In this document: positions 3,001 through 20,000 of the stretch, piece after piece
Position numbering within the stretch: position 1 is the first letter of the stretch
Layout: each line of letters starts with the position of its first letter
Source: an uncultured virus (IMG/VR IMGVR_UViG_3300034407_003469)
Lineage: Duplodnaviria > Heunggongvirae > Uroviricota > Caudoviricetes
Reading direction: 5' to 3' (one strand)
Virus record (IMG/VR): IMGVR_UViG_3300034407_003469
DNA: 20,000 nt
Program-made: the position numbers and the translations under genes
Notes under the pieces: generated by a model
Told to the model about the DNA's origin: nothing
The model's database searches: none
What the model saw: only the letters and a program-made list of their open reading frames with translations

Positions 3001-3991
3001 CTACATTTTTTAATATGTCTTTACCTCTAATACCTGAAACTCTCACATAATCATTATTAGTGTCTAAATTTTTTACAAATTCTGCTTTATCAGATATTTT
3101 TTGTAAGTCGCCTTGACTACATTTAGACAAATCTGATACAGGTTTAAATTCATATTTTGTTGCATTACTATTAATATAATTCAAACTATACCCACCGTTA
3201 AAATAAGAGTTATCTACACTTGTTGATATAGAAAGGGGAGAGCAGATGTAATCTTCAGGTAGTAGTACAGATGTTCTATCATTAATTATATATCCTTCAG
3301 CTTTATTAAATTTATAGTTAATCTTTACACTATTTAAATCTTTATTTGCAACGGCATCAAAAAACTTGGATGTTCTTTCAATTGGTAGTTGTTCTAAATT
3401 TAAATTTTGAGGACATAATTTATACATCAAAAGTCCCATAATATCTACATCTAATGCTGAAGAATCATTTAAAAATCTGTAATCAGGATTTGAAAAAGAA
3501 CTTACAACTCCATTTGGCAAGGATGAAAAGTTAATGTTGGTATATATTTTGTCAAACATATAAACACTTTGACTTTGAAAAGCAACATTCATAACCTGAA
3601 AATTAATTAAGTTAGTTAATGCATCAACTAATTTAGCATAAAAAGAATAAGGCTTTCTATATAATCTTTCAATAAACTTTTTAACATCTGTGTCCAACTT
3701 TCCTTTCGGTGTTAATATTCTATCTCTAAAATATTCTAATTTATCTTTTCCTTGAGAATCGGCTTTTCTTTTTAATTCTTTCCAATAAATACTATTTACC
3801 CCAAATGTTCCATTTATTCTACCATCTCTTCCTTTTAAATATGGACTTTCATTCCCATATATAAAGTCAGGATTTTTTGCAACATACTTGGCAATTATGA
3901 ACATACCTTCATCTTTTAACAATGAATTATCATCAATTGTAGTATTTAATTTGCTTATTTGCTCTCCTATGTAATCTAATATATTTGCCAT
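2..3991 (-). CDS. Giant DarB/COG4646-like SNF2-family helicase (partial, >1330 aa, runs off the left edge; absent from ORF track)
   Basis: Hand translation from ATG at 3991 (MANILDYIGEQISK...) stays open to the edge. In-frame motifs: YASGDVYKKL (res 649; cf. YLSGNVREKL of COG4646), EEVWNKTYNN (res 971), Q-motif LRDAQVEG, motif I LLAHEVGFGKT (nt 907-875), motif Ia IVFTPNQVYEKF. Confidence 0.85.
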   Translation of the reverse strand, partial: MANILDYIGEQISKLNTTIDDNSLLKDEGMFIIAKYVAKNPDFIYGNESPYLKGRDGRINGTFGVNSIYWKELKRKADSQGKDKLEYFRDRILTPKGKLDTDVKKFIERLYRKPYSFYAKLVDALTNLINFQVMNVAFQSQSVYMFDKIYTNINFSSLPNGVVSSFSNPDYRFLNDSSALDVDIMGLLMYKLCPQNLNLEQLPIERTSKFFDAVANKDLNSVKINYKFNKAEGYIINDRTSVLLPEDYICSPLSISTSVDNSYFNGGYSLNYINSNATKYEFKPVSDLSKCSQGDLQKISDKAEFVKNLDTNNDYVRVSGIRGKDILKNVEPFNILSRNFYDTNFSENPALKQSSKGSKAISIKLFFDKINEVFINIRSNDLYFALTCATYMDLDSDTIDIYFNPKSDEAYFVNSNKEQYGYAKGVSSGRLSNCEHIVYAELYKPSLSLQQKSKLFDEQNVREIVLSDDIIEESEALQDALIRQSKLVDIKESPLFYKLLIDNIASFIFTYADQVSVNGQLQWKTKKNPKWSLDSSEGTYFKDKVGKGRWSNPDYFYIYDIRETFWMNNQNMNIEEVLAYFVTKGGSSKDNSSYFRKLSQRILGVDYFIFSDKLLPILIEKGLICIERLSFEKDSGQIVEQKYTYSYEYASGDVYKKLNYLNRELEDNIILYYGESKGLEIVDNQNALLNNNKPDRLTFGDKNPEKNLIVNIHNPIFFTNDEGFVGRIGKDYSVFRDGKTRISTIEVEAESLYKPIALGGMSKKQQYDDFKLNNPLNLTNNHLKKFYEFVVFGQGVDFISSPYLKQNEFYLVDGYIFPMSSGAFIKKHIMPKFEKIADEGDNIPCPLQFIPYLKRNNQKTFTLTNVYNPKSPYGFSNLTQQSRENLIKIGLVENKKKVAVEVNMPDPKNPKNTIKAKQLFTPITEAEGKRIFNVITDKYKKLESQIILEGNNLFTTFCKIQLTPYYRANIEEVWNKTYNNMAIADYTKFPIFCEHSRWFGSLPNPFLFNLRDAQVEGMKFAIANKNSGLLAHEVGFGKTTTSIAMMSHMMLTGESSRTIVFTPNQVYEKFADEIIGRDTTGTLGLLSNWQTLERNKRNNITDAVDIIKFGNASANILIGSDKEGGVKGLKKYTPSQLLIIAKWKGKSKPKGKDTRNEADKGVLEMAKDQLKNLPAGRPSFLPEDKRGLPNESRFSNSLRDSDFNDWFDNLSLNIGLKIPEIYDEGNEDTQEAIDNIVEKVNKSAQVIYDKVNSQYDRYQSGYRYQKQDFVGENKVKISEYPKSVQEFYKTNKNDLDKLFSGDYPQKGWITNLDEALKDGVVTKEQADRIK

Positions 3992-3993
3992 AT

Positions 3994-4236
3994 TTAATCG
4001 TTCAATGTTACCTCAATAGAAGAAATAGCTTCGCCTATTGAAAATACCCCCATACCACTATAAAGGTTGTTTATAATCGTTTCAATCAATTCTATTTTAC
4101 TATTATCATTTTCTATTTGCATAGTTACATTAGGATATTTATTTACATCTAAACTTCCTAATGCATTTACTATATTAGAAACAATTTCTTTTTTTTGTTT
4201 AATACTTTTTATACTATATAGTTTTGGTAATTCCAT
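3994..4236 (-). CDS. Hypothetical protein, 80 aa
   Basis: ATG start; 1-2 bp gaps to both neighbours; no recognisable motif. Confidence 0.8.
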   Translation of the reverse strand: MELPKLYSIKSIKQKKEIVSNIVNALGSLDVNKYPNVTMQIENDNSKIELIETIINNLYSGMGVFSIGEAISSIEVTLND

Positions 4237-4237
4237 A

Positions 4238-4489
4238 TTATCTTAAATACTTTTTTTCTATTTTACCCTCATCAGTTAATATCCAAAACTTATTATCTCC
4301 TGCACTACAAAGAGGTAATCTTGTGTTATATTCAAGATTAAAATTTATTTTTTTTATTGAGGTTTCTCCACCACCTAATAGTTCTACTTCTTCATATCCA
4401 AGTAATTTATCTGCACCACTATCTCTTAAAAATCCTATTGTTAGATTTTCAGAATTTACTATTTGAAAGTTTGGTCCTATGTAAGCCAT
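4238..4489 (-). CDS. Hypothetical protein, 83 aa
   Basis: ATG start; tightly packed in the operon; no recognisable motif. Confidence 0.8.
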   Translation of the reverse strand: MAYIGPNFQIVNSENLTIGFLRDSGADKLLGYEEVELLGGGETSIKKINFNLEYNTRLPLCSAGDNKFWILTDEGKIEKKYLR

Positions 4490-4500
4490 TTTATTATTTT

Positions 4501-4809
4501 TTAATTACAATTATATTCTTTTTTATTTTTTACTCTTGTTAAATAGTCTATTGCTGAATAAATTCTATCTACTTCTGCTTGACTATTTGCAAAATTTAAT
4601 TTACTATATAAATTCTCAAGTTCTAACTTTAAATATCTACAATGTGAAGATTTAACAGTAATTTTAATTGATTTAGGCACTTTATTTTCATCAAATGCGT
4701 GTCTATAAACAAATTCTCCTGAAGGTGTAAATTTATCTATTGTATCTCCTAATGGCATTTCAGATGCCCCTTCTTCATCTCCTGATTGATTAAACCAAAG
4801 TTTTTTCAT
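4501..4809 (-). CDS. Hypothetical protein, 102 aa
   Basis: ATG 1 bp after the upstream stop; no recognisable motif. Confidence 0.8.
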   Translation of the reverse strand: MKKLWFNQSGDEEGASEMPLGDTIDKFTPSGEFVYRHAFDENKVPKSIKITVKSSHCRYLKLELENLYSKLNFANSQAEVDRIYSAIDYLTRVKNKKEYNCN

Positions 4810-4810
4810 A

Positions 4811-5509
4811 CTAATCTTTTTTAAAAATTATTGCTTCATAAGATAAATATCTTAATTTATCATCTGTAAATCTTTTTACTATTTTCATTCCTGCTAATTC
4901 TTCTAATTTAATATCAGATAAATCATTATTAGGCTCATATATTAATACCAAATAACCATTATCATTAACAAAATGAGAACTTCTTTTAGTGTAATATTCA
5001 GTTGGGCTCATATCTCCAAGCCTTTTATTGTTATCTATTGCTTTGTAAAAACTCATTCCACTATTTGGTTGGGTAATTACGATATTATATTTTTTAGAGG
5101 TGTTTGTATTTATTATTGCAAAAAATTGTGAAATATCTCTTTCTGCTGATAAATATAGCCCTTGTGCATTTCTTTCTTGACAAACTAAATCTGTTAATCG
5201 TTTGCATACATAGTCTAAATTGTATGCAGTTATATTACTGTTATCGGGTGCCATATCTAAAATCTTACCTGCACCACTATTTGTATGCATAATACTTACA
5301 GGACTTGGTAAATTTTTATCTCCCTCTATTGAATAGTTAAATAACTCTTTAGAGAACCAACCCCATATATCCTCTACTAATCTATTTGATAGTACAAAAT
5401 CATCACACCCTGTATATCTTTTGAAATATGCCAATTCTTCAACAGATGCATAATAATTTGAAGGCAATGTTTTAATTAACTTCTCTATGTTTTTATTTAC
5501 CTTTTCCAT
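4811..5509 (-). CDS. Degenerate DarB-type N6-adenine DNA methyltransferase-fold protein (probably inactive)
   Basis: Collinear with the DarB-like MTase pattern: EELAYFKRYTG; FVLSNRLVEDIWG (cf. FYTP..V..MW); IMHTNSGAGKIL (cf. VLEPSxGxGRF); ITAYNLD (cf. GxELD); YNIVITQPNS (cf. FDLVIGNPPY); EYYTKRSSHFVNDNGYLVLI (cf. YFI.R.LDLLKPGGLLV.I). Confidence 0.7.
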   Translation of the reverse strand: MEKVNKNIEKLIKTLPSNYYASVEELAYFKRYTGCDDFVLSNRLVEDIWGWFSKELFNYSIEGDKNLPSPVSIMHTNSGAGKILDMAPDNSNITAYNLDYVCKRLTDLVCQERNAQGLYLSAERDISQFFAIINTNTSKKYNIVITQPNSGMSFYKAIDNNKRLGDMSPTEYYTKRSSHFVNDNGYLVLIYEPNNDLSDIKLEELAGMKIVKRFTDDKLRYLSYEAIIFKKD

Positions 5510-5514
5510 TCTAT

Positions 5515-6558
5515 TTAGTTTTTAACCATATCAATATACACCTCTTTTATTTTTTCATCATCCCTAATCCAACCTGCATATTTTTCAAGTGTTTCTCTTT
5601 GACCTTTTGATGTTACCCAAATTTGATTAGTAGGACCGTATTTTTTATAGTCTTTAAACTCACTTTGTCCAATTAACATATCACTAATAAATATAACACA
5701 CATTTCATAATCAGGATTTTCATTTTGCTTTGTTCTTTCTATATCTCCAAGTTTTCTAAATGCACCATCAAAACTTGTACCTCCTCCTCCGTGATAAATT
5801 AATCTGTCTGTTACATCTTTTAACGGTATTTGCTCGTTTGGAACACCAAATTTAGGGTCTTTATCATATGCACTCATTCCACAACTATCACAAACCCAAA
5901 ACTGCCCTGAATATTTTTTAGCTAATTCAGGAATAAACTGTGACAATAATTCTAAAAATGAAACTCCCCCATCAGTATAACTACCCATACTTCCTGATTG
6001 GTCCATTAAAACAACGACTTCTTTATCATTTTTTATTACTCTACTTTTTGCTTTTCTAAATACGGCAACCCCTTGCTCTATATATGTTTGTGCCCCTTCG
6101 TAATCTAAATGCTTTCTTCCCATTTTAGGAGCACCTATCAAATCGCCTAACCCTGCTTCTATTTCTGAAAACCATTCAGGCTCCCCACCTTGTGTTTCAG
6201 GAAGAGCAATAAAACCTAAATCAGTACCTTTTTCTCCTGCACTCGTACTTTCAGCAGGAACAATACTATCAGCTTCAGGAAAATCAATTTTGTTATTCAT
6301 TAACTCTTCTTTTATTTGAGTTACTTCAAATTCAGCTTCTCTAATATCAGTTAAATCTTCAGGAGATAATTTTTCATTTTGTTTAAATGCATTTTTTTCC
6401 ATTGAACCACAAGATGTAGGCATATCATAAGTCAATGGACTTACAATTTTGTTTTGTTGAGTTATTTCTTCTTTTAATCTACCAACAAGACCTTCAAGAT
6501 TTTCATTTAAATCTTTAATAATATTACTATATATTTTTGCCTTTTGTTTATACTCCAT
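5515..6558 (-). CDS. vWA (MIDAS) domain protein resembling the C-terminal half of DUF2201
   Basis: VVVLMDQSGSMG (DxSxS), HGGGGTSFDGAF (MIDAS Thr), VIFISD (MIDAS Asp). Start set at ATG 6558 (TAATG overlap with upstream stop); track start 6564 is an alternative. Confidence 0.85.
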   Translation of the reverse strand: MEYKQKAKIYSNIIKDLNENLEGLVGRLKEEITQQNKIVSPLTYDMPTSCGSMEKNAFKQNEKLSPEDLTDIREAEFEVTQIKEELMNNKIDFPEADSIVPAESTSAGEKGTDLGFIALPETQGGEPEWFSEIEAGLGDLIGAPKMGRKHLDYEGAQTYIEQGVAVFRKAKSRVIKNDKEVVVLMDQSGSMGSYTDGGVSFLELLSQFIPELAKKYSGQFWVCDSCGMSAYDKDPKFGVPNEQIPLKDVTDRLIYHGGGGTSFDGAFRKLGDIERTKQNENPDYEMCVIFISDMLIGQSEFKDYKKYGPTNQIWVTSKGQRETLEKYAGWIRDDEKIKEVYIDMVKN

Positions 6559-6773
6559 TACCATTTATTTTGTGGACATTGTTGCCCATCTAAAAGTGTT
6601 TTTGCTTTTAAAATACAACCACAAGTCAATTGATTTCCATTAACATCATATTCAGGTCTTAAAAGTGTTCCACAGGTCATTCCAACTCCGTATGTTTGTT
6701 TTACATAAGGACATCTGCCACATATATTAAGTCTGTCTTGTGCATTTAATCTTCTTGGTGTATTGCTCCACAT
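6558..6773 (-). CDS. Small Cys-rich putative Zn-binding phage protein (DUF6171-like)
   Basis: RLNICGRCP...TCG...TCGCILKAKT...QCPQNKW fits the CxxC...CGC..K..CPxxKW pattern common in aquatic phages; coupled on both sides. Confidence 0.75.
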   Translation of the reverse strand: MWSNTPRRLNAQDRLNICGRCPYVKQTYGVGMTCGTLLRPEYDVNGNQLTCGCILKAKTLLDGQQCPQNKW

Positions 6774-6774
6774 A

Positions 6775-8250
6775 TTATAATAAGTTTTCTAAATCCATTA
6801 AAGCCTTATCTATATCAGATATTTCTTCTTTTGTCAATTTATCTTGATGTTTATCTTTAATATTTTTAAAATTATTTATTGAATTTTTAATATTGTTTTC
6901 TAAATATACATTATCAATCTTTTCTTGTATATCATCTTTTCTTTTAGTCTGCTCTTTTGTCCAATCTTCTGATTTTTCTCCTTCTTCATCAGACTGTTCA
7001 CCATCTACATCGGTATCTTTTTCTTTTTCCTTTTTATCTCCTTTTTCTTCTTCCTTTTTATCTCCTTTTTCTGCTTCATCTTCACTTTCATCACTTAATT
7101 CATCTGACCAAACTTCATCTCCTTGAGTTTGCCCATCTATTCCTCCATTCATTAAATCTTCAAGTATTTCTTCTTTTTCTTTAATAATATCTTCGGGACT
7201 CTTATTTGCATCACCTTCACCTTCTTCTCCTTGACTATCTCCTTCTTGTTCTTCTCCATCTCCATCTTGCTCTTCTCCACCTCCTCCTTGAGGAGAATCA
7301 TCACCCTCATCTCCATAATCTCCTTGCTCACCCTCTTCTTCAGGAACGGCAGATATAATTTCTTTATCCGTATAAATACCTAATAATTCACCACTTTTTA
7401 CAAATTGTAAACCTTGGGCTCTTTGGTTTTCTACGGCTTTTAAAAAGTTTTCAAACTCTTCATCTGATATTCCCTCAATAATAAAATCACCTTTTTCATC
7501 TATGTCAACAATAACACCGGGCTCTCCATTATATTTTGAGGATTTTTTATCTATTATTACATAATCTCCAATTTCAAAACTTTCTTTTTTATTATCTTGT
7601 TTTTGGCTTTGATTATCTTTGCTTATTCTTTCATTTGCTTTATTAAACTTATCGGCTATAATATACCATTCAGGTACATATGGTCTTTCCTCATCATATG
7701 GTAATTCTATTTTTGGAAATTGTTGTTCAGGTACTAATAATTTTTGTTCTTTGTTTTTAAAATATAAGCACTTGTAAACTTGTTCTAAACCTTCTCTTTC
7801 AAGTTGGTCATTAATTCTTATGTCCATACAAGCATTGCTATTTCTAACTTTACTAAAAGACATAGTTAACAAGCAATCTCCTCTCAATATATGTCCCATT
7901 TCGTGCCTAAAAGATGCTTTCATACAAGGCTCCCAATAACACATATATTTAGTAAAAGTGGGATAACCTATGTAAAATCTTTTCCTTTGTTTAGAATATG
8001 CTGAATAAAAAGTGGTTGCTTTAGGGTCATATTTCAATAATATCTTTTCAGGTATCATACCTGCTTTTCTTATCAAGGGGTCAAGTGTATTTATTCTGAA
8101 ATTATCATCAATCCTTTCAAGAGATGTAGCTATTCTTGTAGAATTGTTTTTTATTACGGAAAATTTTTTAGTACCTATATCTTTTTTAACATTAGATATA
8201 TAAAAGTCCCAAAATTCATCCCAATCAGTAAAATACTTGTGTTCTTGCAT
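6775..8250 (-). CDS. HExxH putative metallopeptidase (DUF2201_N-like) with KOW/SH3-like segment and acidic low-complexity tail
   Basis: RHEMGHILRG (H116-H120) followed by NACMDIRIND (cf. NIAxDxxIN); FEIGDYVII..YNGEPGVIVDID is KOW-like; long E/D/G-rich stretch; TAATG overlap with the AAA gene. Confidence 0.8.
   Translation of the reverse strand: MQEHKYFTDWDEFWDFYISNVKKDIGTKKFSVIKNNSTRIATSLERIDDNFRINTLDPLIRKAGMIPEKILLKYDPKATTFYSAYSKQRKRFYIGYPTFTKYMCYWEPCMKASFRHEMGHILRGDCLLTMSFSKVRNSNACMDIRINDQLEREGLEQVYKCLYFKNKEQKLLVPEQQFPKIELPYDEERPYVPEWYIIADKFNKANERISKDNQSQKQDNKKESFEIGDYVIIDKKSSKYNGEPGVIVDIDEKGDFIIEGISDEEFENFLKAVENQRAQGLQFVKSGELLGIYTDKEIISAVPEEEGEQGDYGDEGDDSPQGGGGEEQDGDGEEQEGDSQGEEGEGDANKSPEDIIKEKEEILEDLMNGGIDGQTQGDEVWSDELSDESEDEAEKGDKKEEEKGDKKEKEKDTDVDGEQSDEEGEKSEDWTKEQTKRKDDIQEKIDNVYLENNIKNSINNFKNIKDKHQDKLTKEEISDIDKALMDLENLL
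7027..7072. repeat. 22-bp direct repeat, 24-bp period, encoding EKGDKKE twice
   Basis: ttcctttttatctcctttttct at 7027-7048 and 7051-7072. Confidence 0.8.
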
Positions 8251-10493
8251 TATAATTTATCTAATAAATCTTTTAATCTAACCCCTTGAGCAGACTTTTT
8301 CATATTTTCATCATATGAGCCTTCATAATAAGTTTCTAAAATGTTTTTAATCTTTGGTATTCTTAAAAAGTCCATAACCTGTTGATTATTTCCCTGTAAG
8401 AAAGCGATATACTTTTCATTATCATCTAAAATCTTACCTAATTCACTTGTAAGCACTCCACGGAAATAAAATCTTATATAAACATCAAGTGATAAAGAGT
8501 TTTCTGAATTATCTGTACCATACAAAGATAGTTTTTCAACTTGCTTTCTCTGTTGTGGTTTCATACCTTTTAACTTTTTCTTGGATGCTCCAAATAATAA
8601 TTTTTCAGTTTGCTCCTTATCTACTTTAAGTGAATGAATATCCCCTTCTTTACCTTTATTCAAAAAGTTTTGAAAGAAATCACTAATTAGTTTTAATTGA
8701 GAATTAAATAAATCAGTATCTAAATTCCTATCTCCTCTATAATTAATCATTAGTTCTTGATAAATAAAAGGTATCATCTTTTCTCCAACTCCTGCAATTT
8801 GGTCATATTCACCTGCTTCGTTTGTATTTGATGCAGATATATGCCCTAAAGCATTATTTGTCCAATTACTTAATGCTGATGGATTACCAATAGTTTTATC
8901 GTATTGTTCTCCTAATGTATTTTTTAACTCATCAAAATATAAATCTTTCAATAAATTATATTTTTCAGTTATTTCTTTTCTTAATCTCATCAATGGAGAT
9001 AAGTCACCCCCTCCTACTTTTGTGGCACCTGCCATAACAGTTTGACCATCTGTTCCTGATGCTATGTAATATTCTTTTGCCAAACACAAAAATAACTTTG
9101 CTAAATCTTGATATAAACTTTGCACTCCTTCATCACTTGAAGATGCACCACCCATAAAATTGTCTAACCATATTTTCCCCCAAGCCGTATTAGTATATAT
9201 TCCACTATCTTCTCTTATAGCAATTTCAGTAGAATCAAAATTTCCGTTATTTTGTCTTAATTTTTCAGCAAAATATGTATTAAAGTTTTGATACAAAAAG
9301 TTACCATCTACATCAGTATCATTTAACATCTTCGGCAAAAAACTATACTGCCATTGTAAATTAACTTCTTTTAAAAATGCAATTTTTCTTAATAATGTAG
9401 TTATATCCATTCTGTTGGGTAAATTATCATCAACACATTTCATTACATTACTCACTTCAACTGATGGTGGATAGAGAGCCATTGTGCTTTTCATAATTAT
9501 TTGGCAAAATCTTCTAAATAAGGCTTCTTCTATTTCTTTTGTAGCATTTGCTATACCAATTATTCTACAATCCATTAGAGGCAATCCATTGTCTATCTGT
9601 GTTCTAATTAAGTCAGCCATTCCACGATAATCACCATAATCTACACCCATCGGTATTGGCATACCCTTTTTATCGTTTATTTCTTTCATTGTCCAACTTT
9701 TCAAAGTTCTTTCACGGACAATATGTAAAAGTGGAGCATATTTATCTTGCTCATACTCTCCAACCTTATCTAATTCATCAAGAACTAACCAATAATTACC
9801 ATAACCCAACAAAGTACACAAGTACATACACATATCTCTAATATCATCTCTTCCTGCATTAATAGAGTCTAAAGTATATTCATATGCCGTAGTTGATTGT
9901 ATTTCAGTTTCAGGGCTTCTTTTAAACTCAAAACCTTTTGAATTAAGAATTTCAGGTGCACCTACAACATCAGACAAATTATTATCCCCTTTATCTTCTA
10001 AATTTGCCACGACTACATTTGTGTTAGGTGGATAGTCTACATCCATCAAACAAATTAAAATTTGATGTAATAATTTATACGAATAAGTAAAAGTTGTACC
10101 TGCTTTATCATAAACTTTTAAATATCTGTCAAATATAGATTGTCCGTTAGCTACTTGAGTAGATATTGTATTAGAATTTGGAAACCAATAAGGCTTTAAA
10201 AATTTTAATATATCTTCTCCTTTTGTAGTTACTTTGCCCTTACTATCTTTTTTTGTTTCATAATCTTCACTAATTAACTTTGCCAATCCTTCTATATTTT
10301 CAGGTTTTTCTGAACCAATGTATAATATTGATGAAGGCAATCTCCATTTTTGAGTTACTTCAATTATGGTGTAAGATTTACCTATTGAAGATTTTCCAAC
10401 TACTAATACAGGTATGTCGTACCTTACAAGTTGTAAGATAGTTTTTAGAGTGTTAGTTCCCTCCCTGTTGATTTCTGATTTGTTTAATGCCAT
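8250..10493 (-). CDS. MoxR/AAA_5-like AAA+ ATPase, 747 aa, with inserts and long C-terminal extension
   Basis: Walker A GKSSIGKS (33-40), SEKPENIEGL..PYWFP, Walker B WLVLDE (235-240), sensor-1 IIGIAN, Arg finger EALFRRF; adjacent to peptidase and vWA genes. Confidence 0.88.
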   Translation of the reverse strand: MALNKSEINREGTNTLKTILQLVRYDIPVLVVGKSSIGKSYTIIEVTQKWRLPSSILYIGSEKPENIEGLAKLISEDYETKKDSKGKVTTKGEDILKFLKPYWFPNSNTISTQVANGQSIFDRYLKVYDKAGTTFTYSYKLLHQILICLMDVDYPPNTNVVVANLEDKGDNNLSDVVGAPEILNSKGFEFKRSPETEIQSTTAYEYTLDSINAGRDDIRDMCMYLCTLLGYGNYWLVLDELDKVGEYEQDKYAPLLHIVRERTLKSWTMKEINDKKGMPIPMGVDYGDYRGMADLIRTQIDNGLPLMDCRIIGIANATKEIEEALFRRFCQIIMKSTMALYPPSVEVSNVMKCVDDNLPNRMDITTLLRKIAFLKEVNLQWQYSFLPKMLNDTDVDGNFLYQNFNTYFAEKLRQNNGNFDSTEIAIREDSGIYTNTAWGKIWLDNFMGGASSSDEGVQSLYQDLAKLFLCLAKEYYIASGTDGQTVMAGATKVGGGDLSPLMRLRKEITEKYNLLKDLYFDELKNTLGEQYDKTIGNPSALSNWTNNALGHISASNTNEAGEYDQIAGVGEKMIPFIYQELMINYRGDRNLDTDLFNSQLKLISDFFQNFLNKGKEGDIHSLKVDKEQTEKLLFGASKKKLKGMKPQQRKQVEKLSLYGTDNSENSLSLDVYIRFYFRGVLTSELGKILDDNEKYIAFLQGNNQQVMDFLRIPKIKNILETYYEGSYDENMKKSAQGVRLKDLLDKL

Positions 10494-14806: not shown

Positions 14807-15046
14807 TTACTCTTTTAATAGTTGTTTATCTAACTCATCCATCTCAACAATAGATTGAGGTTTAACTTTAAGTATTTTACATATTTTGACTACTGTTATA
14901 AGATGATAGTTTAATTTTTTACCATTTACTATTTCACTTAATGCATATTGTCCAATGGGAGTTTCATACCTCTTGGCAATGTTGTCATATAACTTCTTTT
15001 GACTAATTTTCCTTTTCTTTAGTAACTTCTTTAATTTAGTTTCCAT
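14807..15046 (-). CDS. XRE/Cro-type helix-turn-helix regulator
   Basis: LKKLLKKRKISQKKL..IGQYALSEIVNGKK..TVVKICKILKVKPQSIVE. Confidence 0.85.
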   Translation of the reverse strand: METKLKKLLKKRKISQKKLYDNIAKRYETPIGQYALSEIVNGKKLNYHLITVVKICKILKVKPQSIVEMDELDKQLLKE

Positions 15047-15414
15047 TATTTATTTTTTTTAAATGTAAAAATCTTATCATCTTTAATAAGTTCAGATTCT
15101 AACATTTCGTTCTGTTTTTTTTCAAGTTCTTCTTTTGTTAATCTTTCTTCATCAATTTTATACTGTTTAGATTTTTTATCTAAATCTTCGTGGTCATCAT
15201 CTGTCATTTGTTTTAATCCAACAAAATTAGCACCACCATCTAATATGAAGGAAATATAGTCTGTTTCTATTGCATATATTTTTCCCTCTTTATTTTTAAA
15301 TGGAAAGTTTGATTTGTTTTTTTTCAATGCAATTTTATACATTTTTATTAATTCATCGTAATTAGTATCATTAATAAATAATGAAGGTTTCAATTCAAAT
15401 TCTTTGATTTTCAT
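15046..15414 (-). CDS. Hypothetical protein, 122 aa
   Basis: ATG downstream of a promoter motif; TAATG overlap with the HTH gene. Confidence 0.8.
   Translation of the reverse strand: MKIKEFELKPSLFINDTNYDELIKMYKIALKKNKSNFPFKNKEGKIYAIETDYISFILDGGANFVGLKQMTDDDHEDLDKKSKQYKIDEERLTKEELEKKQNEMLESELIKDDKIFTFKKNK
15125..15153. repeat. 29-bp dispersed repeat, second copy at 18763-18791
   Basis: agttc[t/a]tcttttgttaatctttcttcatc, 28/29 identical; encodes DEERLTK[E/D]EL in both genes. Confidence 0.9.
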
Positions 15415-15435
15415 ATAAATTTTTTTTTAAAGTTT

Positions 15436-15464
15436 ACAAATATAACAATTATTTTAAAAAATAA
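15436..15464 (-). promoter_or_regulatory. Conserved promoter, copy 1 (TATATTTG -7 element)
   Basis: 26/29 identical to 17790-17818; about 22 bp upstream of ATG 15414. Confidence 0.65.
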
Positions 15465-15466
15465 GA

Positions 15467-15787
15467 TTAATGGTCTGTAATGAGTTCTAATTCATCACGA
15501 AATACTAACTCTTTAAGACCAAAAGTCATCTTGGGTGTAGTTCCTTCTATTCTTCCATAATAAGCAGGAATAATTGTATTACGAATATCTCCATTCATAC
15601 TTACTTGCCTTATCATAAAAGAAACAACGGCAGGAACCCTCATTCTATTTACCCACACATCTCCAAAAATCTCATTATCTCTTTGTAAATCAGTAATTAT
15701 AGGATTATAAGTGCCATATTTATTATAAAAATATTCGCTTTTTGCTACTATTCTGTATTTCTTCTTTGAGTTAATTCTTTTAATCAT
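15467..15787 (-). CDS. Hypothetical protein, 106 aa
   Basis: ATGATTAA overlap with upstream stop; no motif recognised. Confidence 0.8.
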   Translation of the reverse strand: MIKRINSKKKYRIVAKSEYFYNKYGTYNPIITDLQRDNEIFGDVWVNRMRVPAVVSFMIRQVSMNGDIRNTIIPAYYGRIEGTTPKMTFGLKELVFRDELELITDH

Positions 15788-15983
15788 TATTTTTTGAAAT
15801 TTTAATATTAAGATAGTTAGTAGGTTTATTTATTTTATATTGTGTTAATAGTTCTTTTACAAAATCTTGCGATATATAATCTTCCATATTTTTATCATTT
15901 ATAAAACAAGAAGATAATAATGTTTCTTGTTCTCTAATCATATCATCTAATATGTTGGTAGGAATGTCTATTTCTAATATCAT
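15780..15983 (-). CDS. Hypothetical protein, 67 aa
   Basis: ATGA overlap with upstream stop. Confidence 0.7.
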   Translation of the reverse strand: MILEIDIPTNILDDMIREQETLLSSCFINDKNMEDYISQDFVKELLTQYKINKPTNYLNIKISKNND

Positions 15984-16267
15984 CTTACTATATAATTATT
16001 TTTATAGTCTTTACTTAAAAAGTCGTAAATGTCTACTACATCATCTGATAGTTTTTTAGATTCCTGTATAGATTTAAATTCACTAACTAAATTTTTAACT
16101 AATTCTTTCATTTCTTTTTTTTGATATACTTCCCCTAATTCTGCTTTGATTTCTGTTTTTTTCACTTTAAATACTTTTATTTTTTTTACTTTATTTCTTT
16201 TTGCTTGAGCCTTTTCATATGTTCTATGTAAACAATCTAACCTGCTATTTTTATTATTTATTTCCAA
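15980..16267 (-). CDS. Lys-rich hypothetical protein (start uncertain)
   Basis: Track start 16306 overlaps the upstream gene by 49 bp; in-frame TTG at 16267 gives a 10-bp overlap. Confidence 0.6.
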   Translation of the reverse strand: MEINNKNSRLDCLHRTYEKAQAKRNKVKKIKVFKVKKTEIKAELGEVYQKKEMKELVKNLVSEFKSIQESKKLSDDVVDIYDFLSKDYKNNYIVR

Positions 16268-16602
16268 AATTGTATTGTTATTATTATTAGAGATAAAAAT
16301 ATACAAATTAATGTTTTCATATTCATTCCTTCGTTCATTAAATAATAATTTAATAATGCATTAACAATCATTCCTACTGAAAAACCCACAAACTTTATAG
16401 ACCATAAAGACCCATTTAATACAATAAAACCATTCTTTGTAGCCAATATCATAATATAAGATATTAGTGTTCCAAATACCAATGATAGTATAAATGGATT
16501 TTTAGCAAAAGAACTCCATAAAAATTGACCATTAGTCTGTACCCATATTAAAGCACTACCTAAAGACCAAAAAACCAAGAATATAATAGTTTTATTAATC
16601 AT
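16258..16602 (-). CDS. Four-TM small membrane protein, SMR/DMT-like, 114 aa
   Basis: Four hydrophobic helices; NALLNYYLMNEGMNMKTLICIFL resembles the DMT E-x-x-x-x-K loop; ATG 16602 overlaps upstream stop (ATGATTAA). Confidence 0.65.
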   Translation of the reverse strand: MINKTIIFLVFWSLGSALIWVQTNGQFLWSSFAKNPFILSLVFGTLISYIMILATKNGFIVLNGSLWSIKFVGFSVGMIVNALLNYYLMNEGMNMKTLICIFLSLIIITIQFWK

Positions 16603-17485
16603 TATTTTTAAAACCATTTTTATCATATGAATTAATAACAAAAGGTGTATAATCTTTAGAATAATTTAATAAAATGTTATGATTAATATATTTTTCTTCA
16701 TTGGCTTTAAAATCATACCACTTTAATTGTCTTGCCTCTAATTCAGTAAATTCTATATAAAAACTTTTATAATCATATCCGTGTTTATCTAATATGTCTG
16801 TTACTATTTTTTTATTATCTCTATCTACATAAACACAATCTGTAAGCCACATATAAAAATTATCACCCAAGGAATGTGCTATTTCCATCATTACTTCTGC
16901 TACATAATTAATAATTGCCCAATAAAATGGACTGTACTTATTTTTATATTCCCAATTAGTATCAGTATTTTTCAATTTACCATTTTTATAAGTTTCAATA
17001 GTTTCGTGTTTGTTAAGACTACCAATACTTGCTAATAAACCTAATTTGTTTTCTTTTCTTTTTTCCCAACCTTTTTTATATAAATTTTCATTTATAAAAC
17101 CAAGATTATATGCAGTTTTGAAATAACAAGCATTTATATCAATTGCATTAGTTAAATCACGAGGACTATTATTTATAGCTTTTTGAATTTGCATAAAATT
17201 ATATAAAACAAGTTTTGGTCTATATATAATTTTTGGAATAGGTTTGCCACTTTCAATATATGCATCAATATTCCTTCTAACAGAATTGACCATATGAACA
17301 CCGGGTAATATATCACTCTTTTGATGTCCAAAATATAATCGTTTGTTTTGAACTTTATCTTTTTTATTAAATATAATTTTTCTTGTTAACCCACTACTAA
17401 CAACTTGAAAGTCTGATTTGTTATTTTGTAATTTATTTATATCAACAGAAAATCTATTTAAATAACCACCCCTTATAGTTGTCAT
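16595..17485 (-). CDS. Minimal family-B DNA polymerase-like protein (palm/fingers only), 296 aa
   Basis: Motif A-like AIDINACY (D116, Y121), motif B-like KLGLLASIG (K147..G155, same spacing as KxxxNSxYG), motif C-like YMWLTDCVY (D216); no exonuclease motifs seen. Confidence 0.65.
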   Translation of the reverse strand: MTTIRGGYLNRFSVDINKLQNNKSDFQVVSSGLTRKIIFNKKDKVQNKRLYFGHQKSDILPGVHMVNSVRRNIDAYIESGKPIPKIIYRPKLVLYNFMQIQKAINNSPRDLTNAIDINACYFKTAYNLGFINENLYKKGWEKRKENKLGLLASIGSLNKHETIETYKNGKLKNTDTNWEYKNKYSPFYWAIINYVAEVMMEIAHSLGDNFYMWLTDCVYVDRDNKKIVTDILDKHGYDYKSFYIEFTELEARQLKWYDFKANEEKYINHNILLNYSKDYTPFVINSYDKNGFKNND

Positions 17486-17760
17486 TATTTAATTTCACTT
17501 TTTTCACATATTAATACATCTCCTACTATAAAATCTTGTGTTTTTATATATTTTCTAAAATAATAAGTTGCTACATCATTTACTTTTTTATTATTTAATT
17601 TACCTTCTTCATCAATTACCATTATATGTCCATTTATATATATAAACTCTACAATACTACTATTTGTATATTTATACATTTCTTCTAAACTAAATGTTTC
17701 ATTTTTAGGATATACTCTTTTTTCAGTAATTTGTTTGTCAACAGATATTAATCTTGCCAT
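17485..17760 (-). CDS. DUF3846-family protein
   Basis: FSLEEMY..IVEFI..MVIDEEGKL..VNDVAT..DFIVGDVLIC. Confidence 0.8.
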   Translation of the reverse strand: MARLISVDKQITEKRVYPKNETFSLEEMYKYTNSSIVEFIYINGHIMVIDEEGKLNNKKVNDVATYYFRKYIKTQDFIVGDVLICEKSEIK

Positions 17761-17789
17761 ATTTTTATTTGTATTAGTTTAATTTCAAA

Positions 17790-17820
17790 ACAAATATAAT
17801 AATTATTTTTAAAAACAAAT
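17790..17820 (-). promoter_or_regulatory. Conserved promoter, copy 2 (TTTG-N17-TATATTTG)
   Basis: Minus strand TTTGTTTTTAAAAATAATTATTATATTTGT, 30 bp upstream of ATG 17760. Confidence 0.7.
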
Positions 17821-17894
17821 GAATATATTTTAAAAAATGTATTTATATCATATAAAGTATGTAAAAATATATATATAAAAAAAGAATTATATAA

Positions 17895-17975
17895 AGTAAA
17901 AGGACTATATAGTTAAATATAGCCCTTTTGTGAAATCAAACACCACAAAGCAATGGACAGGGATGTCCCGTGGTA
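17895..17975 (-). ncRNA. Candidate ~80-nt small RNA
   Basis: Lies between a TATATTTG element (17979-17986) and the terminator; GC-rich nested stems ACCAC/GTGGT and GGACA/TGTCC. Confidence 0.35.
17898..17929 (-). terminator. Intrinsic terminator-like hairpin
   Basis: Minus RNA AAAAGGGCUAUAU-UUAACU-AUAUAGUCCUUUU pairs fully with one G-U (an A-C mismatch on plus), followed by U-rich sequence. Confidence 0.65.
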
Positions 17976-17978
17976 ACA

Positions 17979-17994
17979 CAAATATACAAATATT
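17979..17994 (-). promoter_or_regulatory. TAnnTTTG promoter element (AATATTTGTATATTTG)
   Basis: Shares 15 identical bp (ATATTTGTATATTTG) with 11104-11118. Confidence 0.5.
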
Positions 17995-18084
17995 TATTAT
18001 ATAAAGAATTTTTTGTATTATTGCATTAGTTAGATAATGGGATTGGTCAACCTAATTGACTGAACATAATACATTTTTGTTTTG

Positions 18085-18117
18085 GAAAAGCCAACTTTAG
18101 ATAGGAGTTGGTTTTTC
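18085..18117 (+). terminator. Terminator-like hairpin (possibly bidirectional)
   Basis: GAAAAGCCAACUUU-AGAUA-GGAGUUGGUUUUUC pairs fully on plus with three G-U pairs; abuts the DUF6165 stop. Confidence 0.55.
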
Positions 18118-18119
18118 TT

Positions 18120-18521
18120 TTAATAAGGTTTATATGATTTTTGTTCAGATATATCAGAACCCATTAATTTATCTATTGATTTTTTTATAGACATTCTTTT
18201 ATCATTAGTAATATATACACTTCTTGCTATATCAATAAAATCATTATCAAATTCTTTATTTCTTTCTTTATCTCTTATGTTATCTTCTATAATCCATAGT
18301 TTACTATTTATATTATATAAATCTTTATATAAAGTATTTATATTTTCTATAACATCTTTATCCATCATTTTATAATATTTTAAATAAACCTGATTTAAAC
18401 TATAAAATTCTATATCTATAAATTTAATTTTTTTTATATCAGTTATTTTTTCTGCCTTAATTTTTAATATAGTTAATTTATCTATTAACTCTCCAAACGA
18501 AACAGGGATGTGTACTGTCAT
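18120..18521 (-). CDS. DUF6165-family protein
   Basis: IPVSFGELIDKLTILKIK..INSKLWIIEDNIR..FIDIARSVYITNDKR..IK..I..LMGSDISEQKSY. Confidence 0.85.
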   Translation of the reverse strand: MTVHIPVSFGELIDKLTILKIKAEKITDIKKIKFIDIEFYSLNQVYLKYYKMMDKDVIENINTLYKDLYNINSKLWIIEDNIRDKERNKEFDNDFIDIARSVYITNDKRMSIKKSIDKLMGSDISEQKSYKPY

Positions 18522-18724
18522 TTTATTATTTTTTTTATAAATGTTTCTACACCTTTAGAAACATATGTTATTAATTCTCTTTCTCTTTTTAATGGAACTT
18601 TAAATACATAATATAAAATTGCATATATTAATACTACTAATGATAAACCAAAAGGTATTACTAATAATACTATATAAATAAATAATAATAATTTATCTAT
18701 AATAGTTAACTTATTGTTTTTCAT
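18518..18724 (-). CDS. Small membrane protein, 68 aa
   Basis: About 30-residue hydrophobic stretch; ATGA overlap downstream. Confidence 0.7.
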   Translation of the reverse strand: MKNNKLTIIDKLLLFIYIVLLVIPFGLSLVVLIYAILYYVFKVPLKRERELITYVSKGVETFIKKIIK

Positions 18725-18971
18725 TTTTATATATGTTATTTATAATTCTAATTTTTATCATTAGTTCATCTTTTGTTAATCTTTCTTCATCTTTATATAT
18801 GTTATTTATAATTCTACACTCTCTTGAACAATAATAATGTTTACCATTAGTTTTATTAAATTTATTTTCACAAACAATACAATTACCTATACCAAATTTA
18901 TGATTTCTTTTTTCAATTTTATTTAAATAAATATTATACGCATTAATATATTTAGATTTTATAGTTTTCAT
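18711..18971 (-). CDS. Small Zn-ribbon protein (CxxC...YCSxxC), 86 aa
   Basis: CIVCENKFNKTNGKHYYCSREC. Confidence 0.75.
   Translation of the reverse strand: MKTIKSKYINAYNIYLNKIEKRNHKFGIGNCIVCENKFNKTNGKHYYCSRECRIINNIYKDEERLTKDELMIKIRIINNIYKNEKQ
18720..18816. repeat. 31-bp direct repeat (30/31; 25-bp perfect core)
   Basis: ttcat[t/c]tttatatatgttatttataattcta at 18720-18750 and 18786-18816, encoding RIINNIYK[D/N]E. Confidence 0.9.
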
Positions 18972-19099
18972 TAACTTTTTTTAATTTTATTATTAATGTT
19001 ATTAATTTTATATTCTATCCATTCATTTAATTTACTTTGAGCATACATTCCAAATGCGAAACATCCACCACCAAATATAATTATTGCTATTGTTTCCAT
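18971..19099 (-). CDS. Small N-anchored membrane peptide, 42 aa (below ORF-track cutoff)
   Basis: METIAIIIFGGGCFAFGMYAQSKLNEWIEYKINNINNKIKKS*; its stop overlaps the next ATG (TAATG). Confidence 0.75.
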   Translation of the reverse strand: METIAIIIFGGGCFAFGMYAQSKLNEWIEYKINNINNKIKKS

Positions 19100-19121
19100 A
19101 TTATTTATTTATTTATATATA

Positions 19122-19220
19122 ATAATATAGTGGGAAGAACAAAAACATTTAATATTAGGGTATTCTTTATTGACCCATTATTATTATTGGTATTATTACC
19201 GAAACTTCCCACTATATTAT
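19122..19220. repeat. Perfect 16-bp inverted repeat enclosing 67 bp with two minor hairpins
   Basis: ataatatagtgggaag (19122-19137) and cttcccactatattat (19205-19220). Confidence 0.9.
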
Positions 19221-19999
19221 AGTTTATTAATTTTATTTTGTAAATCTGCTATCTCTTCATTTATATCATCTAACTCCATTCTATATTGTTGATATGTCAT
19301 TTCTTTATTTGCAAAGGCTTTTGATATGTTTTTTTTCATATCAGTATAATTACTTATTTGTTTTATATATTCACTTTTATCATTATAGCCTAATAAGTCA
19401 CCTATTGGCTTTGGTAATGGTGTTTGAGGTGTTTGTATTGATTTTCCTTTTGGTTGCATTGGTGATTGTATAACTGATGTTCCTGACCCAACACCATTCA
19501 ATACAAAAACATATATACCTTTTTTTATATTACTTTGATTTGGGTCATATTCAAATTCAAAATATGTACTCTTCTTTTTAACTGATTGTCTAAAGTTAAT
19601 ATTATTATATAATTTCTTATAATTACCTATAATGTTTTTATATGGAAATCTCATATTAGGTATTTTAGGTCTTATTAAACTTAAATCTAATATAATAGTA
19701 TCATTTAATTTAAAATAACTTTGACTAAAATTTGCAGTCATTTCATCTTCAAATTGATACCAAGGTATTCCTAATGTTAATGAAGGGGGAAATTGTCTTG
19801 TTCCTTTTTTTTGTATAACTATTCTATTGAACTGTGGAATTAATACACTTAATGGTGTATTAGAATATTCATCTCTTACTCTTCTATATTCTTTATATAA
19901 ATCTTTTCTCTTTAAAGGAGTTCCTGCTTTCTTATAATAATCACTTATAGCTTTAACAATCTGTTGATAACGATTAGCATCGCCTTGTGTAATAAGTTT
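19217..19999 (-). CDS. Hypothetical protein, 5'-partial (>=260 aa), C-terminal coiled coil
   Basis: Frame stays open upstream of the track start 19741 to the window edge (KLITQGDANRYQQIVKAISDYYKKAG...WYQFEDEMTANF...). Confidence 0.8.
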   Translation of the reverse strand, partial: KLITQGDANRYQQIVKAISDYYKKAGTPLKRKDLYKEYRRVRDEYSNTPLSVLIPQFNRIVIQKKGTRQFPPSLTLGIPWYQFEDEMTANFSQSYFKLNDTIILDLSLIRPKIPNMRFPYKNIIGNYKKLYNNINFRQSVKKKSTYFEFEYDPNQSNIKKGIYVFVLNGVGSGTSVIQSPMQPKGKSIQTPQTPLPKPIGDLLGYNDKSEYIKQISNYTDMKKNISKAFANKEMTYQQYRMELDDINEEIADLQNKINKL

Positions 20000-20000
20000 A

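Follow-up and report, generated by a model that had tools for sequence, protein, structure and literature searches.

A putative detached and degenerate DarB-type methylase module encoded upstream of a giant SNF2 helicase in uncultured phages

The gene considered here lies on a stretch of 20,000 nucleotides of DNA from an uncultured virus of the Caudoviricetes (IMG/VR IMGVR_UViG_3300034407_003469), the whole of which is called the window below, and it encodes a protein of 232 amino acids (aa). We propose that, in this lineage of uncultured phages, a DarB-type 'methylase-helicase dyad' would be split into two genes, and that the 232-aa protein would be its detached, catalytically dead N-terminal module, composed of LPD36-like helices and an EcoKI/TaqI-like adenine methyltransferase (MTase) core and retained for some non-catalytic function alongside the helicase; we consider this proposal about evenly balanced between right and wrong. 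The helicase half would be a giant SNF2 gene situated three small open reading frames (ORFs) downstream, with a start that roughly coincides with the end of the MTase domain in fused proteins. Since the cofactor-binding and adenine-activating residues appear to be lost, the module would most likely perform no methyl transfer, and its task would most plausibly be that of a subunit contacting DNA and/or positioning the helicase on phage DNA.

P1 DarB is the archetype of giant methylase-helicase proteins, which are very common and which both phages and plasmids deliver together with their DNA. According to PMC5512222, the dyad of which DarB is the archetype unites LPD36 (GXGU motif), an EcoKI/TaqI-like MTase (TP and NPP(Y/F) motifs) and a superfamily 2 (SF2) helicase, and coupling of MTase and SNF2 is also described in the form of a conserved gene neighbourhood, so that the dyad and its occasional neighbouring-gene form are already known. 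The DarB type is further marked by packaging in the virion and by protection, in cis, of the injected DNA from type I restriction. The manner in which DarB protects DNA is called 'not defined' in PMC11109961, and PMC12707154 likewise presents the mechanism as undefined; one proposal, in PMC5512222, is methylation of the entering DNA, and another, in PMC12707154, is physical shielding. Our search of the literature did not turn up any account of a DarB-type MTase that is detached and degenerate throughout its family. A protein of 232 aa, small and easily expressed, is a direct handle on what the fold does when it is unable to methylate, and the family adds about 45 sequence clusters that current family libraries fail to recognise.

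Homology to the methylase domain of DarB-type proteins

A word-indexed search returned 15 relatives of the 232-aa protein at 57-99% identity, and an exhaustive phmmer search of 1.84 billion cluster representatives (50%-identity library) returned 45 representatives at E<=1e-3, 22 of them at E<=1e-10; fragments and two long repeat-type proteins aside, these measure 212-248 aa. Three alignments were built from the family: A1 with 14 close sequences, A2 with 29 diverse ones and A3 with 48. In what follows, motif counts out of 48 refer to the family members in A3 and counts out of 17 to canonical DarB-type domains, and conservation percentages refer to the 36 most diverged family sequences. Two candidates for long, fused members were rejected as probably spurious: one, P0036, is a repeat protein of the DUF7507/DUF11 kind, and the other, P0049, has only weak and scattered matches. 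The family is seen only as proteins of about 215-260 aa.

Family libraries are silent on the protein, which found no match in Pfam, PHROGs, NCBIfam or PADLOC. Pfam N6_Mtase (PF02384) and Eco57I (PF07669) matched neither the window protein at E<=0.1 nor four remote relatives at E<=0.01. Sequence searches of the PDB with the protein, A2 and A3 gave chance-level matches only, and tblastn against phage GenBank records gave nothing for the 232-aa protein or for its 747-aa neighbour. Scans of IMG/VR with alignments A1 and A6 revealed no relatives, and a scan of the contig collection with A6 revealed none.

The affinity of the protein emerges from profile-profile comparison. With hhalign, A3 aligned to ten DarB-type MTase domains (alignment A4) over 178 columns at E 7.9e-13, and to 17 such domains at E 3.1e-13; by this hhalign comparison (probabilities 97.8% and 97.95%) the protein is homologous to the monophyletic polyvalent-protein MTase clade of the EcoKI/TaqI-like family. 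A comparison of A3 with Leptospira phage LE1 gp15 alone reached 89.3%. In LE1 gp15, an Eco57I-type MTase (about residues 624-715) precedes a SNF2 helicase, and homologues of this MTase region are found in P1 DarB (26% identity, E 1e-14) and in about 100 phage records. When the protein was divided, residues 1-45 found the collinear LPD36 region (P 0.0032), whereas the match of residues 46-232 was to the DarB-type MTase core (E 1.1e-10); taken by themselves, the last 37 residues of the family had no match to DarB-type domains. The stretch collinear with LPD36 comprises residues 3-36, and GXGU is replaced by Y32 (97%), G34 (39%), C35 (94%) and D37 (78%). When searched against the PDB, the DarB-type profile retrieved EcoKI HsdM, M.TaqI, BsaXI, BrxX and 2f8l; the A3 profile retrieved none of these, its best match (E 0.14) being an unrelated protein. 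On these profile comparisons the 232-aa protein is homologous to the MTase domain of DarB-type proteins and aligns, as a whole, with their LPD36 and MTase part.

The predicted structure agrees with this assignment. An AlphaFold2 (AF2) model based on A1 was unusable (predicted local distance difference test, pLDDT, 58.7), and the model based on A3 was used (pLDDT 90.9; predicted TM-score, pTM, 0.89). It displays N-terminal helices and then seven strands in the pattern of a class I MTase: a Rossmann-like sheet of order 3-2-1-4-5-7-6 with flanking helices, which places the protein at the level of fold among the class I S-adenosylmethionine (SAM)-dependent MTases. Foldseek against the PDB gave at least 500 matches at E<=1e-3. 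Nearly all of the 50 matches listed are SAM-dependent MTases, the top E value among them being 1.3e-8, with TM-scores relative to the query (TMq) of about 0.45-0.55; the longest coverage among those listed, 209-213 of 232 residues, belongs to type I HsdM subunits. In a viral structure library, the highest TM-scores went to segments of giant phage proteins that bear a helicase or MTase annotation, for example A0A6J5LV26_1 (TMq 0.73). In addition, the ESM Atlas gives as neighbours viral Eco57I/N6_Mtase proteins of small size (score 0.93), which we take as a lead only. An earlier reading of this DNA from its letters alone, the sequence-only reading below, had recognised a DarB-type N6-adenine MTase pattern kept from end to end; the hhalign match and the model bear this out, and the absence of a Rossmann MTase fold, which that reading had named as a finding that would refute it, is the opposite of what the model shows.

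Replacement of the cofactor-binding and catalytic motifs

In M.TaqI-type enzymes, motif II binds the ribose through its Glu, and motif IV binds the target adenine through its aromatic residue and its Asn, the latter being contacted by the TP motif. Canonical DarB-type domains adhere to these features without exception: the Thr of YTP, the Glu, Pro, second Gly and Phe of motif I, the Glu of motif II, and the Asn, Pro and Phe/Tyr of motif IV are each present in 17/17. The functional reading of the canonical residues follows PMC5512222 together with what is known of M.TaqI-type enzymes.

When the family is mapped onto these domains by hhalign, the key residues are replaced almost throughout. The position of the Thr of YTP is L40 in the window protein and is Thr in 0/48 family members (L27 I10 V7 Y3 M1). 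At motif I, the Glu is H75 (an acidic residue in 1/48) and the Pro is T76 (Pro in 1/48). The Glu of motif II has become N97; none of the 48 has Glu there, the distribution being N33 D7 Q3 T2 F1 H1 S1. As to motif IV, the Asn corresponds to Q147 (Asn in 2/48) and the Phe/Tyr to S150 (aromatic in 0/48). The pattern [DNS]PP[YFWH] was found anywhere in 0/73 family proteins, and the looser [DNS].P[YFWH] only at sites other than motif IV. The SAM-binding signature, made up of the acidic residue and G-x-G loop of motif I and the acidic residue at the end of beta-2, is lacking in the family as judged from the sequence, and the counts indicate that the loss of cofactor and catalytic motifs extends beyond the window copy to the whole family.

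The sequence-only reading had listed FYTP as FVLS, EPSxGxG as HTNSGAG and the acidic Glu of beta-2 as Asn, and the mapping reproduces each of these. It had also given catalytic NPPY as TQPN. The catalytic Asn and the aromatic are indeed absent, but the register was one residue off, since Asn falls on Q147 and not on T146, and NxP[FY] reads QPNS. By the hhalign mapping and the family counts, the earlier list is right apart from this register.

Some positions are kept to a fair degree. The glycines of motif I are kept at G79 (33/48) and G81 (41/48), as is D99 (38/48), and D125 stands at 75%. Among the 14 close relatives of A1, the HTNSGAG loop, T146 and P148 are invariant. Within the wider family, the replacing residues vary (Q, C, E, H, T, N and others at 147; S, N, D, E, K and others at 149; E, K, S and others at 150). 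The most conserved positions of the family are F130 (100%), Y32, Y172 and R176 (97%), C35 (94%) and G185 (89%), followed by C102, D159 and F180 (86%) and Y173 (81%). Of these, Y32, Y172/Y173, R176 and G185 are common to the family and to DarB-type domains; the helix motif that includes Y172 and R176 has Y in 15/17, F in 17/17 and K/R in 14/17 canonical domains. As a separate observation, C35 and C102 adjoin the conserved Y32/D37 and D99/Y100, respectively, and have no counterpart in DarB-type MTases; judging from their conservation, they may mark a new site, whether for a metal, a disulfide or a ligand.

Intactness and purifying selection

A scan of metagenome contigs yielded 31 loci. For the analysis of selection, L002 (whose protein is the same as that of L001) and L020 and L028 (cut by contig ends) were set aside. 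The ORF is intact in all 28 of the remaining loci, at 223-260 aa and over an identity range of 39-100%, as the sequence-only reading had noted for the window copy. The ratio of nonsynonymous to synonymous substitution rates (dN/dS) was calculated by the Nei-Gojobori method for 378 pairs, of which 186 are saturated and five nearly identical; over the 187 pairs with 0.05<dS<1.5, the median is 0.26 and the maximum 0.57. In the nine least diverged informative pairs (dS 0.086-0.184), dN/dS is 0.06-0.11. The MTase-like gene is under purifying selection. It is conserved as well as its neighbours or better: in the most divergent locus, L031, it retains 39% identity, compared with 25-34% for the neighbours. 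The neutral decay among homologs that the sequence-only reading had named as a refutation is contradicted by the dN/dS values and the intact ORFs, and its suggestion of a retained role fits the purifying selection, the family-wide replacement of motifs and the strict synteny described below.

The highest ratio at low divergence was observed in the pair L029/L030 (dN/dS 0.33, dS 0.37). The two proteins differ at their C-termini, L030:4322-5104 encoding 260 aa and L029:10001-10672 encoding 223 aa, with the divergent end in L030; one of the two copies may carry a frameshifted or remodelled tail.

The giant helicase and the split architecture

The window ends inside the giant gene, of which it holds the codons for the first 1330 aa. 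In the near-identical locus L002:11519-18907 the full length is 2462 aa, and across loci it ranges over about 2160-2490 aa. Pfam recognises only SNF2/ResIII (about residues 1009-1074) and Helicase_C (2018-2087); the PHROG matches are phrog_1685, phrog_62 and a DarB-like family, and among cultured phages the giant matches nothing but DarB-like and SNF2 proteins, with LE1 gp15 as the best match. When ten giant homologues were compared by hhalign with five full-length DarB-type proteins, 749 columns aligned at 99.9% (E 3.4e-34), covering giant residues 950-2244. A search for an MTase in residues 1-1000 found no Pfam family at E<=1 and nothing by hhalign with A3 or A4. By these comparisons, the giant is homologous to the helicase part of DarB and has no detectable MTase domain.

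The beginning of the giant was also compared with DarB-type alignments. Residues 31-50 gave the best local N-terminal match every time, each time weakly (P 0.01, 0.037 and 0.03), and fall on the motif 'n-K-Y-F-x-x-x-P-E-x-v-l-G', which directly follows the MTase core (beta-7) in fused DarB-type proteins. The motif is kept among giant homologues and is not evident in L031. That this segment is the counterpart of the post-MTase motif of fused proteins is suggestive only. As further observations on the giant, the distance of about 940 residues from helicase motif I (about 1035) to Helicase_C implies very large inserts in the SNF2 core, and residues 1-950 are conserved among homologues and match no known domain.

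The two genes keep constant company. The giant lies downstream of the MTase-like gene in 26 of the 31 metagenome loci, and the remaining five contigs end before that position. The order, from a 747-aa P-loop protein through a 491-aa HExxH, a 71-aa Cys-rich and a 349-aa VWA-like protein to the MTase-like gene, the small ORFs and the giant, was found in every locus long enough, down to 39% identity (L031, with a giant of 2162 aa). The MTase-like gene starts 5 nucleotides past the stop codon of the ORF that precedes it (5515-6564), its own end lies 1 nucleotide ahead of the ATG of the next (4501-4809), and no terminator-like site was found on the minus strand from 11230 to 2399; on account of this spacing and of the lack of terminator-like sites, co-transcription of the gene with its neighbours is plausible. 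The number of promoter-like sites in the window (68) shows no excess over that expected by chance (74.6 +/- 8.9). The coordinates 4811..5509 and the coupling to the neighbours given by the sequence-only reading are thus confirmed, the gene being on the minus strand. In place of its term 'stand-alone', 'split' describes the gene better, the giant downstream being a DarB-type helicase without a detectable MTase and the 232-aa protein corresponding to the LPD36 and MTase part that ordinarily precedes such helicases in one fused protein.

Comparison with known systems and alternative explanations

Taken together, the two genes present the architecture of DarB-type proteins (P1 DarB, LE1 gp15, phage D6, Thermus phage Lalka27b): both halves align, the order of domains along the DNA is the same, and the break falls right after the MTase core. 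Unlike those proteins, the window system is spread over two genes, which three small ORFs separate, and is encountered as a neighbourhood and not as a fusion; the TP, EPS, beta-2 Glu and N-x-P-F/Y motifs are all replaced, as is the GXGU of LPD36 by x-G/E-C-x-D (Y32, C35, D37), and the giant has about 950 residues of unassigned nature before the helicase. The family likewise differs from EcoKI/TaqI-like gamma-class N6-adenine MTases (HsdM, M.TaqI, lmo1582 2f8l), whose motifs it lacks and whose profiles it does not match; its chain stops just past beta-7, so that it carries no extension for recognising the target or binding HsdS. Degenerate MTase folds retained as non-catalytic partners are known in METTL14 (with METTL3) and DNMT3L (with DNMT3A). 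The likeness consists in a retained, degenerate MTase fold that partners a larger enzyme, although the lineages are unrelated, and whereas the partner of METTL14 and DNMT3L is an active MTase, the presumed partner here is a SNF2 helicase, with no active MTase known.

The position of the gene, always ahead of a giant DarB-like helicase in which no MTase is detectable, makes it probable that the 232-aa protein is the detached module of that machine, and the loss of the chemistry with retention of the fold and of selection favours a non-catalytic subunit. We infer from the motifs that the protein would neither bind SAM nor be active; it would also associate physically with the giant. An anti-restriction role may be supposed by analogy with P1 DarB, itself of unresolved mechanism.

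Several points weigh against this proposal. The inactivity is deduced from motif reasoning alone, and G79, G81, D99 and D125 are fairly well kept, with HTNSGAG, T146 and P148 invariant in the close clade, so that a pocket for a ligand, SAM or another, could still serve there. The gene context is known only for loci at 39-100% identity, the remote clades being at 22-35%. Three unrelated ORFs lie between the genes, and more are inserted in L019, so that a simple recent split is not evident; a profile search for fused forms of the family among longer proteins came back empty, a result of little weight in either direction; and the match at the junction is, taken alone, statistically non-significant (P 0.01-0.04). 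The two genes may have arisen by fission or may never have been fused.

A different explanation, which we hold to be unlikely, is that the protein is a non-catalytic MTase mimic acting alone against the host and not as the partner of the giant, for example as an HsdM-like decoy poisoning type I restriction-modification or bacteriophage exclusion (BREX) complexes, as a binder of another small ligand, or as an assembly or packaging factor. The gene is indeed separate, its family comprises only proteins of about 215-260 aa, 209-213 residues share their fold with HsdM-type subunits, and C35 and C102, absent from DarB-type domains, hint at a new site. It is difficult to reconcile this with the strict linkage to a DarB-type helicase gene wherever the contig reaches (26/31), a helicase that itself has no detectable MTase part. 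The C-terminal region of HsdM, which binds HsdS, is missing from the protein, and a host target is without direct evidence.

It is also rather improbable, in our estimation, that the protein is an active MTase with a non-canonical active site, working on DNA or another substrate, in which SAM would still be bound by the altered loops and the chemistry would fall to another set of residues, with the conserved Y32/C35/D37, D99/Y100/C102 or Y155/D159 as candidates. Many class I MTases, for example O- and C-methyltransferases, have no NPPY-type motif. An intact class I fold in the model, the retention of G79, G81, D99 and D125, the invariance of the pocket loops in the close clade and the strong purifying selection would all suit such an enzyme. 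Nevertheless, every cofactor- or target-contacting residue that is present in 17/17 DarB-type domains is replaced, no MTase family hidden Markov model in Pfam, NCBIfam or PHROGs detects the protein, and the replacing residues are variable in the family, 15/48 having lost G79, a variability unlike that of a conserved new catalytic site. Finally, a decaying, functionless remnant of a methylase, compatible with the loss of all catalytic motifs, can be set aside almost entirely because the selection data (28/28 intact ORFs at 39-100% identity, dN/dS of 0.06-0.11 at low divergence) contradict it, as do the 45 representatives in the 50%-identity library, even with the two long repeat proteins among them probably spurious, and a conservation equal to or above that of the neighbours.

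Returning to the proposal of a non-catalytic module working with the helicase, it may be extended, as a doubtful but not negligible possibility, to the whole of this DarB-type lineage: the lineage would work without methyl transfer, and the fold would act beside the SNF2 translocase, either to read DNA by gripping it or flipping its bases or to mimic the host HsdM subunit. If this were true, it would speak for a physical mechanism of DarB, by occlusion or remodelling of restriction complexes on entering DNA, and against protective methylation, and Y32, C35, D37, D99, Y100 and C102 would mark a novel binding site.

Neighbouring genes and other features of the window

The features of the window are collected in Table 1. 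The three small ORFs have no family matches and no similarity to DarB-type proteins. In Thermus phage Lalka27b (L045) and Bordetella phage PHB04 (L046), a gene annotated 'Ulx-like anti-restriction' directly follows the DarB-like gene; none of the three small ORFs of the window could be related to known proteins. At L019:10678-12390, ORFs of 448 and 117 aa, with no informative family match, are inserted so that they part the MTase-like gene from the small ORFs. From this arrangement, the spacer between the halves of the dyad seems to be a hot spot of insertion.

Table 1. Positions in the window, or residues of the encoded protein, of the features discussed
Feature	Position	Strand	Description or basis
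232-aa MTase-like gene	4811..5509	minus	ATG at 5509, TAG at 4813-4811; ORF call
N-terminal helices	residues 1-55 of the 232-aa protein		LPD36-like part and helix before the core; AF2 model
Class I MTase core strands	b1 71-76, b2 91-97, b3 119-123, b4 141-146, b5 181-191, b6 209-214, b7 225-230 (residues)		AF2 model
D37-F-V-L-S41, position of (H/F/Y)YTP (motif X, 'TP motif')	5387..5401	minus	hhalign mapping
M74-H-T-N-S-G-A-G-K-I83, position of motif I (LEPSxGxGxF)	5261..5290	minus	hhalign mapping
Y96-N97-L-D99, position of motif II (vELD, end of beta-2)	5213..5224	minus	hhalign mapping
T146-Q147-P148-N149-S150, position of motif IV (G-N-x-P-F/Y)	5060..5074	minus	hhalign mapping
Y172-Y173-T-K-R176, helix motif common with DarB-type domains (Y-F-x-x-R/K)	4982..4996	minus	
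Giant DarB-type SNF2 helicase, first 1330 aa	2..3991	minus	ORF; window ends inside the gene
Candidate junction motif, giant residues 31-50 (FIIAKYVAKNPDFIYGNESP)	3842..3901	minus	hhalign local match
Three conserved small ORFs (102, 83, 80 aa) separating the giant from the MTase-like gene	3994..4809	minus	ORFs; syntenic in most loci
747-aa protein	8250-10493	minus	P-loop VGKSSIGKS, Walker-B-like LVLDELD
491-aa protein	6775-8250	minus	HEMGH (HExxH), long acidic Asp/Glu/Gly-rich tail
71-aa Cys-rich protein	6558-6773	minus	phrog_13558
349-aa VWA-like protein	5515-6564	minus	DQSGSM; weak VWA_2 match

No library gave a confident recognition of the four upstream syntenic genes (5515..10493); going by their motifs, they look like an ATPase/VWA/metallopeptidase set. 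The homologue of the HExxH protein is lengthened to 1199 aa at L019:5115-8714. The window is AT-rich, with 18-32% GC, and its long ORFs, including all those discussed, are on the minus strand. The lowest GC (18-25%) and many small minus-strand ORFs are found at 15000-20000, among them an ORF of 86 aa with a weak HNH-like PHROG match, and a 79-aa ORF resembling a helix-turn-helix (HTH) regulator lies at 14807-15046.

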